IMG/VR virus record: IMGVR_UViG_2698536657_000011
Direction: 5' to 3' (one strand)
Source: a virus
Lineage: Duplodnaviria; Heunggongvirae; Uroviricota; Caudoviricetes
Length of the DNA stretch: 6,325 nucleotides
Shown here piece by piece: positions 117 to 6,325 of the stretch. The notes below the pieces were generated by a model that was given only the letters and a program-made list of their open reading frames with translations, did not search any database and had not been told where the DNA came from. The translations under genes were made by a program, and so were the position numbers. Position 1 is the stretch's first letter, and every line of letters starts with the position of its first letter.

Positions 117-1124
117 CTAATCGATGGACAGTTTATGGACACTTTCAGCCAGCGGATTAAAGCTGATTGCATCCTGTAAAAAGTCCGGCGAAAAATGCGC
201 ATACGTCATCGTTTGTTGAATCGTGGCATGGCCCAGGATTCGTTGTAGCGTAACGATATTTCCGCCATTCATCATGAAATGTGTAGCGAATGTATGACGC
301 ATGACATGGGTGGCCTGCCCTTTCGGCAAGTCCGGCTTCACCTCCTGAAGGATCTCCCGAAATCTGAGGTAATCAGCCTGGTACAACAATCCGGTTCTGC
401 GGGTTTTAATTAACGCAAGTACCGCATCAGAAACGGGAACGGCGCGAGATTTTCCGTTCTTGGTGTTAAAGAACATCACGCGGTTACCTACAATATGTTC
501 CCCACGTAAACCAGCTGCTTCACCCCACCTTGCCCCCGTGGAAAGACACAGAATGGCAACACGCCGCGCATCTCCATCGAGTCGTTCAAGCAGTCGTTCA
601 ATCTCCTCATCTGAAAGAAAGGCCATCTCTGTGTTCCTGACTTTCAGCTTACGTATTCCCCGAACCGGGTTTTCGTTATGGAACACCTCACCCTCAATCA
701 GCGAGCTGAACATTGCAGACAAGGCACACAAATCGCGGTTAATGCTGGAAGGCATTAACCCGGCCTGTAATTTGTCGGACCGGTACCCGAGCATAAATTT
801 TCGCGTCATCTGACTGGCACGAGGATCACCCATCTCACGGTTTATCTTTTCCAGTCTGACCCTGTAGGTATCCCCGTAATCCTGGTTACGACCATCAAGC
901 AGCCACCAGGCCTCTATCAGTTCGGATAACCGACGCTGATCTGCTGGCTTAGCCTGCCATGGCTTATCATGAAAATTCTGCAAAACATACCTTTCAAACT
1001 CCTGCGCCTTTGACTTCAGGGTAAAAATCTTACGAATCCGCTTTCCTTCCGTCCCTTGTGGCCTTACATCAACCTTATAACGTCCGTCTTTGAGTTGCTT
1101 AATCGACATGATTAGCCCCTCCAA
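117..1124 (-). CDS. int: Phage tyrosine integrase (site-specific recombinase), P2-Int-like, 335 aa
   Basis: Full-length ORF with GGAGGGG Shine-Dalgarno 6 nt upstream of the ATG. Catalytic-region motifs of tyrosine recombinases are visible (LSTGARWGEA; HVMRHTFATHF; LGHATIQQTMTYAHF with the terminal Tyr). Length and N-terminus (MSIKQLKDGRYKVDVRP) match my recollection of P2-type integrases. Sits next to the repressor, as in P2. Confidence 0.9.
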   Translation of the reverse strand: MEGLIMSIKQLKDGRYKVDVRPQGTEGKRIRKIFTLKSKAQEFERYVLQNFHDKPWQAKPADQRRLSELIEAWWLLDGRNQDYGDTYRVRLEKINREMGDPRASQMTRKFMLGYRSDKLQAGLMPSSINRDLCALSAMFSSLIEGEVFHNENPVRGIRKLKVRNTEMAFLSDEEIERLLERLDGDARRVAILCLSTGARWGEAAGLRGEHIVGNRVMFFNTKNGKSRAVPVSDAVLALIKTRRTGLLYQADYLRFREILQEVKPDLPKGQATHVMRHTFATHFMMNGGNIVTLQRILGHATIQQTMTYAHFSPDFLQDAISFNPLAESVHKLSID

Positions 1125-1178: not shown

Positions 1179-1520
1179 TCAGCCAGCATTGCGGCCTGAT
1201 CGGGATGATTTTTGGGTAACGTCGATTGAAGCCAGATCGCCCTCCGACTGAGAAGATCCATCAAGAGAGAGAGCCGGGGCAATTTGCCCGGCGGCAGGTA
1301 GCGTCTTATCCTTTAACAGCCAAAACATATACTTTTCAAATCGATCTGCCTGAAGAACCGACTCCACGATTTTAGCTCTGGCGCTCTTTTGCCCTGATTC
1401 ATAATTCCTTACGGTGGCCAGAGATAACCCTGTAATTTCAGCAAATTGTTTTTGCGTTAAGCCCTCCGCCTTACGTATCTGGCGTAATTTTTCCGCGTAG
1501 TCTATTGACAAGATAACCAT
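1179..1520 (-). CDS. Immunity repressor, P2 C-like, with N-terminal XRE-type helix-turn-helix, 113 aa
   Basis: HTH signature (LTQKQFAEITGLSLATVRNYESGQ) near the N-terminus. Downstream segment FEKYMFWLL...AGQIAPAL resembles the P2 C repressor as I recall it. Co-oriented with and directly upstream of int, divergent from the rightward early genes. The only upstream Shine-Dalgarno candidate (GAGAGG) lies about 11 nt from the ATG, so the start is less certain than the ORF. Confidence 0.78.
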   Translation of the reverse strand: MVILSIDYAEKLRQIRKAEGLTQKQFAEITGLSLATVRNYESGQKSARAKIVESVLQADRFEKYMFWLLKDKTLPAAGQIAPALSLDGSSQSEGDLASIDVTQKSSRSGRNAG

Positions 1521-1623: not shown

Positions 1624-2148
1624 ATGCGGGACTTCATTGCCGATAAAGAGTTATCTGACACCGATCACACAACTGGAGCGGCGTACATCAACGCCAATAC
1701 CAGTCAACAAGAAGCAACAGATAACAACGACGAACAAAAGCCACAGCGCACATATAAAAAAGGGGCAACCCTGCGGCTGGATGGCCCAATAGCCGGGCTT
1801 TGCTCACTTGAAAAAGGGGCCGCCTACATCGGATTAACAAAAACAGCATTACGCGCAGCTCTTCAGCGTAACCAGATGCCAGGACATAAAACCCGCTCAA
1901 ACCCTGAAGATGAGAATTCGGATGGTGTTTGGTGGTTTAACGTCAGAGAGTGGGACAAGCTGGCCGACGAACTCCCGGAATGCGAGCCACCAGAATGGCA
2001 CAACTGGAAAAGCTACTGGACATACGACCGCCAGAAAAGAAAGTTTACCCCAGCTGATAAGGAAGATTGCCAGACCGTCAATGGAAAACGGGTTTACAAA
2101 GGCAGAAAGTCAAAGCTGGAACAGAGCCAGGATGTAAACGAACGGTGA
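1624..2148 (+). CDS. Cox/Apl-like excisionase/transcriptional regulator homologue, unusually long (174 aa) with N- and C-terminal extensions
   Basis: GAGAGGA Shine-Dalgarno 6 nt upstream of the ATG. First rightward gene after the repressor, the position Cox/Apl occupies. Central segment AAYIGLTKTALRAALQRNQMPGHK...GVWWFNVREWDKL resembles the HTH and wing of Cox/Apl proteins. Family assignment is by eye, not by search. Confidence 0.55.
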   Translation: MRDFIADKELSDTDHTTGAAYINANTSQQEATDNNDEQKPQRTYKKGATLRLDGPIAGLCSLEKGAAYIGLTKTALRAALQRNQMPGHKTRSNPEDENSDGVWWFNVREWDKLADELPECEPPEWHNWKSYWTYDRQKRKFTPADKEDCQTVNGKRVYKGRKSKLEQSQDVNER

Positions 2149-4701: not shown

Positions 4702-4997
4702 GCACCATCAACCACCAGAAGCTACGCGAACTGGCATTTGCCCTGCAACGAATGGCAACGCCTCAAAAATTACTGGCATTTCGCGCAATGCTCTCGCCGT
4801 CTGCTGTGCTGGCACTGCTGGATGAGCTGGAGCACGCCAGAACCACGGCTCCTGCCATTCGCCTGACGCTCCATCATGAAATCGCTGATTTCTGCGCGAC
4901 GTTGGAGTCGCCGGGCGAACCGGAAACGCCGGAAGCAATACAGCAAGAGCTGCTGCAACGCATTGACAAGGTTTTTGATTTTTTTCTGAACCAGTAA
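4698..4997 (+). CDS. Hypothetical protein, 99 aa; C-terminal about 40 aa paralogous to the 4197-4409 product
   Basis: GAAGGAAG Shine-Dalgarno upstream. C-terminal HEIADFCATLESPGEPETPEAIQQELLQRIDKVFDFFLN aligns with EEIDDFTATLSGPGAPVTPGEIHRDLKRRIENAIDYTLN. Confidence 0.6.
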   Translation: MSTINHQKLRELAFALQRMATPQKLLAFRAMLSPSAVLALLDELEHARTTAPAIRLTLHHEIADFCATLESPGEPETPEAIQQELLQRIDKVFDFFLNQ

Positions 4998-5114
4998 GAA
5001 ACCAGAACATGCACACACAAAAAAACCGCTTGCCATGCCGCAATCAGTCAGGTTACATTCCCGCTGCACCTCATAAAACGGGTGCCGGGATTTCCACCCC
5101 GCCGACTACAAGAG

Positions 5115-5145
5115 CGCACAACCGCGCCAGCGGTTTTTTTGTGCG
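5115..5145 (+). terminator. Putative Rho-independent terminator or attenuator: stem AACCGC/GCGGTT (5120-5125 / 5130-5135), loop GCCA, then a 7-T run (5134-5140); outer arms CGCACA/TGTGCG (5115-5120 / 5140-5145)
   Basis: Read directly. Lies about 120 nt downstream of the stop at 4997 and about 170 nt upstream of the next start. The GC stem is short, so strength is uncertain. Confidence 0.4.
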
Positions 5146-5261
5146 TACTGTATCGCCACGTCTTTTTCGCGTCAGAATAATGGCGGGGCGTACGGGGCCG
5201 ACTTCGGTCGGGCCGGGATCTCTTGTAGCCGGTTGTGGAAACCCTGTACGTCTCGCCACCC

Positions 5262-5292
5262 TGAGTTTTCCACCTCCGGATGGTGAGTTTTC
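5262..5292. repeat. Perfect 9-bp direct repeat TGAGTTTTC (5262-5270 and 5284-5292), spaced 22 bp, flanking a small palindrome CACC-TCCGGAT-GGTG
   Basis: Read directly. Two-helical-turn spacing immediately upstream of the gene at 5320 suggests a paired protein-binding site. Confidence 0.45.
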
Positions 5293-5319
5293 AGAACTTA
5301 CTACAAGAGGCCAAACACC

Positions 5320-5547
5320 ATGGCAAACCGCAAACAACAGCGCGCCCGCGCTGAGCGTCTTCACACCCGGACTGAAATCAACCGCAGACTCTGGCGCGCA
5401 TCACGCGTCGCGCAAATCATGTACGTCAACATGCTGCATGAACACGCACACGCGCTGTCAGACCGTTACTGTGCCGCCGTCTTCAGCTACCTGGCGGATG
5501 ACCTGGCAGAACTGCAGGACCTTATCAACCAGCAACACCACCACTAA
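5320..5547 (+). CDS. Hypothetical basic protein, 75 aa, with C-terminal QQHHH
   Basis: AGAGG 9 nt upstream of the ATG. Preferred over the overlapping 206-aa track ORF (5009-5629), whose translation is Ser/Thr/Arg/Pro/Cys-rich and looks like an off-frame read of GC-rich DNA. Confidence 0.5.
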   Translation: MANRKQQRARAERLHTRTEINRRLWRASRVAQIMYVNMLHEHAHALSDRYCAAVFSYLADDLAELQDLINQQHHH

Positions 5548-5615
5548 ACAACATCCTGAAGCTATCCCGCACCCGTGCGCGGGAGGCTTCCGCACGTCTG
5601 TTACCGGAGGTTCTC

Positions 5616-6032
5616 ATGAAGAGCGTTAAGGGACTTTCAGATATTCAGGATTTTTTTAACTGGATGTGGGCAGTGGATCCCCGGCTGGCTTCCCGCCTGA
5701 ACGACTGGCACGACTATTACCGCCGCGCCTGTAAACGGGCCGCCAGACGCGTCACCACATACGGGGATTTCTCCTTCACCGTTGACGACCGTTACCGCGT
5801 GGACGTGAAAGGTGATGGTGATGGTTTTGGTTTATTTCACATCAACGGAACCGACAGCACCGCCATCAGCTGGTCGTCGTCAGAGATGACGCTTGTTCTG
5901 GAAATGACAACGCACAGCGTGGCCGTGAAAGGCATATACACCGCAGAAGACTTTATCGGTGAATATCAGCGCCTTCTCGTGCTGTACCGCGCGGCGTTTC
6001 AGGCGGCGACTGCCGGGGAGTGCGACGCATGA
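5616..6032 (+). CDS. Hypothetical protein, 138 aa
   Basis: Strong GGAGG Shine-Dalgarno 5 nt upstream. Stop overlaps the next start (ATGA at 6029-6032). Contains a GDGDGFG segment; no family recognised. Confidence 0.6.
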   Translation: MKSVKGLSDIQDFFNWMWAVDPRLASRLNDWHDYYRRACKRAARRVTTYGDFSFTVDDRYRVDVKGDGDGFGLFHINGTDSTAISWSSSEMTLVLEMTTHSVAVKGIYTAEDFIGEYQRLLVLYRAAFQAATAGECDA

Positions 6033-6325
6033 GCGACCATAACGCACAACTGGCGTACCCGTGGAACGCCCCGCTACCGGTTATCGATCCTGAAACATTC
6101 GGCAGAGCGCAACCAACCGCATTGCGCCAGGCCATTCAGAGCTACATCAACGAAGACATTCGCATTGATGCAAGACTGGATGAAGAGACCGTCGACTTCC
6201 TGACAAACACAGACGAAGGCAAGCGAATTAATTCGCATCTTCACCACGACGAAGAGCGTCGGATCAGACTGGAAAAACTGGCGCGGCACAAACACGAGAA
6301 TCCGCCAACACTGGTATCTGAAGCC
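6029..6325 (+). CDS. Hypothetical protein, N-terminal 99 codons only; ORF runs off the window end
   Basis: GGGGAG upstream; ATG at 6029 overlaps the preceding stop; open through 6325 with no stop. By synteny with P2-type early operons it could begin a larger replication-related gene, but I cannot support that from sequence. Confidence 0.5.
   Translation, partial: MSDHNAQLAYPWNAPLPVIDPETFGRAQPTALRQAIQSYINEDIRIDARLDEETVDFLTNTDEGKRINSHLHHDEERRIRLEKLARHKHENPPTLVSEA

Follow-up and report, generated by a model that had tools for sequence, protein, structure and literature searches.

Genes and RNA elements of the cassette

The window analysed here, a stretch of 6,325 nucleotides (nt) from the IMG/VR virus record IMGVR_UViG_2698536657_000011, covers the early arm of a P2-like Escherichia coli prophage that lies nearest to the P88/Xuanwuvirus group. 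At its right-hand end, behind what the initial annotation had described as a regulatory gap, three co-oriented open reading frames (ORFs) follow one another up to and beyond the last position (genes 1 to 3; Table 1). These are real genes: they have plausible ribosome-binding sites (AAGAGG 9 nt upstream of the gene 1 ATG at 5320, GGAGG 7 nt upstream of the gene 2 ATG at 5616), differences between related loci concentrate at third codon positions (521, 499 and 905 at the three positions in gene 1; 66, 62 and 159 in gene 2), and their order is conserved. A member of the gene 2 family stands directly after gene 1 in 75 of 84 related loci, and the gene for the replication endonuclease gpA comes next in every locus read. 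The second and third genes are joined, as had been noticed, by an ATGA overlap, located at 6029. The block had been left as function unknown with no assignable motif, but it can now be named, and so can the gap ahead of it. Gene 1 is a homologue of the P4 epsilon (E) protein, gene 2 probably a distant relative of P2 Orf83, and gene 3 the beginning of gpA, while the gap harbours two RNA families, isrK and C4, which together with the genes form a candidate RNA immunity cassette.

Both RNAs are recognised over the whole length of their Rfam models. Across model positions 1-77 of 77 the isrK-type small RNA (sRNA) reaches 63.9 bits (gathering score 50), and across positions 1-87 of 87 the C4 antisense RNA reaches 78.6 bits (gathering score 45; E 1e-14). 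The terminator-like hairpin reported earlier is the intrinsic terminator of the isrK-type sRNA, and the repeats of the repeat-rich leader are the elements a1/a2 and b1/b2: TTTCCAC starts at 5091 and again at 5267, CTACAAGAG at 5106 and again at 5301, and the reverse complements of both lie inside C4. The C4 elements a' and b' thereby match exactly, over 7 and 9 nt, both a1/b1 within isrK and a2/b2 ahead of gene 1, and b2 overlaps the gene 1 Shine-Dalgarno sequence (AAGAGG, 5305-5310). Predicted duplex energies are -13.8 kcal/mol for b':b2 and -8.7 kcal/mol for a':a2. The computed fold of the leader (5066-5340) predicts pairing of a1b1 with a'b' in cis (z-score -4.4), an arrangement that fits the inactive "structure A" of Gifsy-1. 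Between a2 and b2, and abutting the latter, lies a further hairpin (about 5282-5300, GUGAGUU-UUCAG-AACUUAC) that is present in every locus; the type that diverges most, represented by locus L013, has a different sequence at this spot, GGUGA...UCACC, that could still pair. This hairpin could serve in processing, in Rho entry or in access to the ribosome-binding site.

Table 1. Coordinates of the cassette elements, followed by those of the upstream genes
Feature	Position	Strand	Remarks
Promoter-like site	5030-5059	+	-35 TTGCCA (5030-5035), 18-nt spacer, -10 TACATT (5054-5059); from a consensus scan
isrK-type sRNA	5066-5140	+	Rfam RF01394; counterpart of P4 seqA and of the P1 a1b1 element
a1	5091-5097	+	TTTCCAC, within isrK
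b1	5106-5114	+	CTACAAGAG, within isrK
isrK intrinsic terminator	stem 5120-5135, then T run	+	
C4 antisense RNA	5176-5263	+	Rfam RF01695; counterpart of P4 CI RNA
b'	5220-5228	+	CUCUUGUAG, hairpin loop of C4 in the predicted fold
a'	5235-5241	+	GUGGAAA, adjoining single-stranded junction of C4 in the predicted fold
Target region a2-b2	5267-5309	+	a2 TTTCCAC (5267-5273); b2 CTACAAGAG (5301-5309)
Gene 1	5320-5547	+	75 amino acids (aa), ends QQHHH; homologue of the P4 epsilon (E) derepression protein
Gene 2	5616-6032	+	138 aa; probably a divergent, N-terminally extended relative of P2 Orf83 (DUF5405)
Gene 3	6029-6325	+	first 99 codons of a gpA-type replication endonuclease; continues past the window end
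Integrase	117-1124	-	
P2 C-type immunity repressor	1179-1520	-	113 aa; P2 C homology; protein class bound by P4 epsilon
Cox-family protein	1624-2148		small early genes next

How might transcription of the cassette be initiated? The start predicted for the promoter-like site at 5030-5059, at about 5066, coincides with the 5' end of isrK. Neither hexamer varies across 55 distinct loci, and the spacer between them comes in two divergent haplotypes. This site would be the analogue of P4 PLE or of Gifsy-1 PisrK. The earlier proposal that the block is a separately regulated unit holds insofar as the block has its own control region, comprising the promoter-like site and a covarying RNA switch. Strict isolation of the block is less certain, since a terminator scan found no terminator between the cassette and the Ead/Ea22-like gene that ends upstream of it at 4997, so that read-through from the early promoter is also possible, as in P4. 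A second promoter-like site (5153-5181, plus strand, TCGCCA-N17-AATAAT; TTGCCA-N17-AATTAT in most relatives) lies just 5' of C4. It may be coincidental, because its predicted start falls inside the 5' stem of C4; alternatively, it could supply a promoter of C4's own.

The best E. coli chromosomal match to positions 4990-6325 (locus L001) is 96% identical, and the three genes are annotated there as derepression protein, hypothetical protein and replication endonuclease. Matches to some or all of the cassette region occur in about one fifth of complete E. coli genomes, and the majority of these matches are partial.

Covariation of C4 with its target sites

To see whether the complementarity exceeds what chance would give, we aligned the 300 nt upstream of gene 1 from 80 loci with gene 1 relatives (62-97% identical), which yielded 55 distinct sequences. 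The scaffold is about 89% identical per column, with hardly any change in the promoter hexamers, in the stems and terminator of isrK or in the stems of C4. Variation in the region is greatest in the six short pairing elements, with seven a' types and 14 b' types occurring in 28 combinations. Despite this variability, 98.0% of cells are paired between C4 and a2/b2, as opposed to 69.2 ± 1.0% in shuffles (reached in 0 of 500), with a covariation score of 0.679 versus 0.122. Between C4 and a1/b1, 99.1% of cells are paired, compared with 69.7% in shuffles. Sliding the partner columns reduces pairing between C4 and a2/b2 to 36-49%, and slid controls overall give 28-51%. Cognate combinations form 15.7 of 16 base pairs, whereas non-cognate ones form 10.8 of 16 and reach at least 15 in just 1.5% of cases. 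P88 itself carries CUGUAGUUG as b' and so a C4 type that is non-cognate to that of the window. This comparative evidence argues strongly for a functional, specificity-setting three-way RNA interaction.

Two loci are rare mismatched recombinants. In L015 the a1/b1 type differs from the type shared by a'/b' and a2/b2, and in L077 two positions of b' agree with neither b1 nor b2. These may be natural derepressed or decaying variants.

The same data bear on the idea that the block is not separately regulated at all but forms the distal end of one early operon, with isrK and C4 persisting as inactive relics. The missing terminator downstream of the Ead/Ea22-like gene is in line with such an arrangement, as is the fact that P2 expresses orf83-A from its early promoter without isrK or C4. 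A relic, however, would not retain three-way complementarity over 7 x 14 variants together with a near-invariant scaffold and invariant hexamers, and we regard this explanation as very unlikely.

We consider it extremely unlikely, too, that the real product of the region is the 206-aa protein of an ORF at 5009-5629 (plus strand), which some RefSeq genomes and phage records annotate at this place as an Ash family protein. Its product reaches 16.9 bits on Pfam Phage_ASH, below the cut-off of 26, and the residues that match (16-85) are translated isrK and C4. The variation across loci follows RNA pairing rather than codons, and the ORF overlaps gene 1 in another frame. The P4 "cI protein" ORF that defines Phage_ASH likewise overlies the CI RNA. 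That ORF (8168-8584, minus strand, in L002) scores 59.7 bits on Phage_ASH. Because the residues matched in the window ORF correspond to isrK and C4, and the P4 ORF overlies the CI RNA, "Ash family protein" annotations at such loci are probably translated RNA genes and can be flagged as such.

The encoded proteins and a proposed circuit

An NCBIfam search returned no match for any of the three proteins, and their assignment draws on other comparisons. The gene 1 product, named "derepression protein" in RefSeq, aligns with P4 epsilon in BLASTP (32% identity over 50 aa, E 3e-7), its family profile aligns with P4 epsilon in hhalign (94.6% probability, E 6.9e-8), and it scores 29.5 bits on Pfam PF25738, for which the gathering score is 27. 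The protein is basic (isoelectric point 9.6), and ten of its eleven lysine and arginine residues lie within the first 30 positions. The antirepressor P4 E binds the P2 C protein (PMC2995052). The window encodes a repressor of this class, which matches the P2 C protein in the Protein Data Bank (2XCJ/2L49; E 5.6e-15) and shares 36% identity over 84 aa with P2 C (E 4e-23). By homology we presume an antirepressor role for the gene 1 product.

The proposal that the truncated third gene could begin the replication-initiator gene was borne out. All 99 of its residues are identical to the start of an 839-aa protein (L001 7034-9553) that scores 357 bits on Pfam Phage_GPA (PF05840); the GPA catalytic domain, at residues 189-514, lies past the window end.

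Gene 2 is more elusive. It matches phrog_3237 and belongs to a small, fast-evolving family with 18 representatives among 1.8 billion proteins, which fall into subtypes of 121, 129 and 136-139 aa with 20-28% mutual identity. The window protein itself gave no Pfam match at E values up to 1, PF17399 included, but 6 of 15 family members match PF17399 (best E 1.5e-6), and the family profile aligns with P2 Orf83 in hhalign (75.8% probability, E 2.3e-5). A structural model built with a deeper alignment (mean predicted local distance difference test score, pLDDT, 80.2) comprises two N-terminal helices, a four-strand sheet and two C-terminal helices. This model had no significant neighbour among solved or viral structures; its best viral fold match is a DUF5405 protein, weak at E 0.026. 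The GDGDGFG segment that had drawn attention in gene 2 is present, yet KGDGDGFG/GDGDGFG was rejected as a motif: it lies in a hypervariable indel patch, where relatives have DLNHSLNLG or the like. P4 ORF151 was considered as a homologue and rejected for want of any similarity. The gene 2 product may have an accessory role in replication, coupled to gpA.

How might these elements act together? From the two RNA families, their complementarities and covariation, the homologies of the proteins and a gene order that is kept among relatives, we propose that the block is probably, though by no means certainly, the downstream, protein-coding part of a P4-type (P1 immI-type) RNA immunity cassette residing in a P2-like prophage of the P88/Xuanwuvirus type. 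We envision that transcription from the promoter at about 5030-5059 would begin at isrK and that the majority of transcripts would end at the isrK terminator, giving a short RNA with a1 and b1. Transcripts that read through would carry C4, a2/b2, the epsilon-like gene, the Orf83-like gene and gene A. Processed C4 would then use its b' loop and a' junction to pair with a2/b2 and mask the ribosome-binding site of the epsilon-like gene, such that in the lysogen the antirepressor would remain untranslated and the Orf83-like protein and gpA would be kept low through polarity. Because a1 equals a2 and b1 equals b2, the isrK RNA cannot pair through these sites with the mRNA but would compete with it for C4. 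Were isrK RNA to rise relative to C4, the mRNA would be released and the operon turned on, whereupon the epsilon-like protein may bind and inactivate a P2 C-type repressor, either that of its own phage or that of a co-resident P2-like prophage, and gpA with its Orf83-like partner would start replication.

Such a circuit suggests an RNA-controlled, LexA-independent route of induction for these prophages. No LexA box was found near the cassette, the sole one-mismatch match being inside the integrase gene and within chance expectation, and LexA/SOS control of the cassette was rejected on these grounds. P88 has been recovered after mitomycin C treatment (PMC5285337), but no uninduced control was found, so that this recovery says little on induction.

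Several observations weigh against this circuit. On the side of expression, the activity of the promoter at 5030-5059 is predicted from a consensus match only, and how sufficient gpA would be made in the lytic cycle past the isrK terminator and C4 is left unexplained by the sequence. On the side of the protein, the Pfam score of the gene 1 product is marginal (P4 epsilon obtains 170 bits over its full length), and the product is 20 aa shorter than P4 epsilon. On the side of the target, Thr67 of P2 C, which is required for E binding, is Asp in the repressor of the window. Epsilon type and repressor type are correlated across loci with a Mantel rho of 0.25, near background linkage, and one epsilon cluster is found with up to eight repressor clusters; the signal of co-evolution between the two proteins is weak and confounded by linkage. 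Moreover, 13 loci (L085, L096, L097, L099, L104, L109, L122, L126, L134 and L136-L139) have no C-type repressor within the upstream sequence covered (at least 4.3 kb). In the ten of these whose immunity region is readable, there is instead an unrelated helix-turn-helix repressor of 134-155 aa with a partner of about 215 aa, for which no Pfam match was found. One such locus, L085, encodes an epsilon-like protein 97% identical to that of the window.

Since a near-identical protein occurs without a C-type repressor, the epsilon-like protein is not obligately matched to a repressor encoded in cis, and its target may be broader than, or different from, the phage's own repressor. All 13 of these loci retain the isrK-C4-epsilon-Orf83-gpA block, and the retention of the block across differing immunity regions points to mosaic exchange of the latter. 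Within the epsilon-like protein, a central patch (residues 25-49, about 5392-5466) exists in two sharply distinct versions, WRASRVAQIMYVNMLHEHAHALSDR and TRAAHIAFIMQSNTLHRLNSTISAD, between invariant flanking ends. The repressor types found with one class overlap little with those found with the other, which makes the patch a candidate specificity determinant.

Does the cassette, then, mainly lock replication? In an immunity of the P4 style, C4 would block expression of gpA and of its Orf83-like partner both in the lysogen and from superinfecting phages of the same a/b type, with epsilon as a passenger or in a role other than action on the phage's own repressor. In P4 it is the replication gene alpha that this RNA system controls, gpA lies downstream in every locus examined, and the hypervariability of the a/b elements resembles the diversification of immunity groups. 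The lack of a match between epsilon type and the repressor in cis, together with the occurrence of nearly the same epsilon beside an unrelated immunity region, points the same way. Yet the ribosome-binding site overlaid by b2 belongs to the epsilon-like gene and not to gpA, and in every characterised relative it is an antirepressor that is gated (P1 Ant, Gifsy-1 AnrP, P4 epsilon). As an account of the cassette's main function, a replication lock seems to us rather unlikely, although it and the control of an antirepressor are not mutually exclusive.

Alternatively, the epsilon-like protein may be aimed at other prophages and derepress co-resident ones with a C-type repressor instead of its own phage, a form of cross-talk or competition comparable to the action of P4 on its helper. 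This would explain its presence in phages that have no C-type repressor and the absence of one-to-one pairing between epsilon type and C type, and it has a precedent in P4 epsilon, which acts in trans on a foreign C repressor. Most loci, the window included, nevertheless encode a C-type repressor, and the top-level epsilon classes have largely disjoint C-type sets. We judge an exclusive action of this kind improbable.

In L001, a match to the sRNA STnc130 (122 bits; 919-1053, plus strand) lies at the likely attachment site, between dmsA and the prophage integrase gene. The window begins further within the prophage and does not reach this match.

Relation to other prophage control modules

From a wider perspective, the cassette represents a familiar mode of control in a phage where it was less to be expected. 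Its closest counterpart is that of P4, where an isrK match (8692-8615) is followed by a C4 match (the CI RNA, 8507-8420), by epsilon and by the replication genes. P4 thus has the same two Rfam families in the same order and with the same geometry of complementarity: the CI RNA pairs through TCCTGTGAA and TTCTCAC with sites in the isrK-like region and with a second, downstream set, in which the b site again overlaps a Shine-Dalgarno sequence, and an epsilon-family gene precedes replication genes (in P4 the order is seqA, CI RNA, seqC, epsilon, orf151, cnr and alpha). The differences lie in what surrounds this core. P4 is a satellite, whereas the window belongs to a complete P2-like phage; in P4 the b site and epsilon are set apart by an ORF of about 65 codons, whereas the epsilon-like gene of the window follows directly after b2; orf151 is unrelated to the Orf83/DUF5405-like gene 2; and the replication gene alpha encodes a primase-helicase rather than a gpA nickase.

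P4-like satellites whose epsilon is 97-100% identical to that of P4 nevertheless have hypervariable a'/b' elements, with three a' and six b' types, and no a'/b' type is common to the P4-like and P2-like sets (76 versus about 80 loci). A common a' of the P4-like loci (TTTCCAC, 22 loci; among L163-L242) is the exact reverse complement of the window a' (GTGGAAA), so that by sequence the two regulator RNAs could pair over 7 nt. This complementarity is probably due to chance, because the motif frame leaves only three free positions.

A C4-family RNA also controls the immI region of P1 and P7 (c4 RNA, icd, ant), and in P1 the c4 RNA represses synthesis of the antirepressor Ant (PMC8546580). The regulated protein of the window is of epsilon type instead, with a replication initiator downstream, and resides in a P2-like phage. 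The a1b1/a'b'/a2b2 nomenclature used here, and the covering of the ribosome-binding site in P1, reportedly stem from the work of Citron and Schuster in 1990 and 1992.

The isrK-orf45(STnc1160)-anrP arrangement of Salmonella Gifsy-1 parallels the circuit proposed for the window: an isrK sRNA that has a promoter of its own and ends at a leaky terminator is followed by a processed RNA and by an antirepressor gene. Gifsy-1 isrK binds Hfq and activates the downstream antirepressor in trans, raising its translation more than 100-fold, and is needed for induction, and the processed RNA STnc1160 lies at the position of C4 (PMC4825925). Gifsy-1 differs in being a lambdoid phage with an AnrP-type antirepressor and no downstream replication gene, and the published model reads the C4 position as a 45-codon ORF. 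A more distant isrK-C4 cassette (65-74% identity) occurs in well over 100 phage records, many of them Shiga toxin (Stx)-converting, and lies under or beside antirepressor or Rha genes in several.

P2 resembles the window in its C-type repressor and Cox-type partner and in a small gene that overlaps the start of the gpA gene, in P2 the DUF5405-family gene orf83 and in the window its probable relative gene 2. It has no isrK, C4 or epsilon homologue in this region, however, and the gene 2 protein of the window exceeds Orf83 by 47 aa and shows two additional N-terminal helices in the model. P2 is the textbook non-inducible phage, and P4 epsilon the textbook means by which a satellite drives P2 out of lysogeny. 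Coliphage 186, itself P2-like, encodes an antirepressor of its own, Tum, as an induction route. Tum is controlled by LexA and acts on the CI-type repressor of 186, whereas the control of the window cassette would be exerted by RNA. In the literature that we searched, no account of such a cassette in P2-like phages was found.

What would follow for this family of phages? The presence of the epsilon family and of a P4/P1-type antisense-RNA switch inside P2-like phages suggests a shared origin of the control modules of satellites and their helpers, and turns a "hypothetical" block into a testable regulatory circuit. The reassorting a/b variants constitute a natural library of largely orthogonal RNA-RNA specificities. 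As a more tentative generalisation, which we find conceivable but would not yet bet on, P88-type phages may carry a second, RNA-based immunity with at least 7 x 14 reassorting specificities that gates both an epsilon-type antirepressor and gpA. If so, P4 epsilon and the CI RNA immunity would share ancestry with a module of helper-type phages or have been captured from it, and the a/b types would sort P2-like prophages that compete with one another, along with their satellites, into immunity groups defined at the RNA level.

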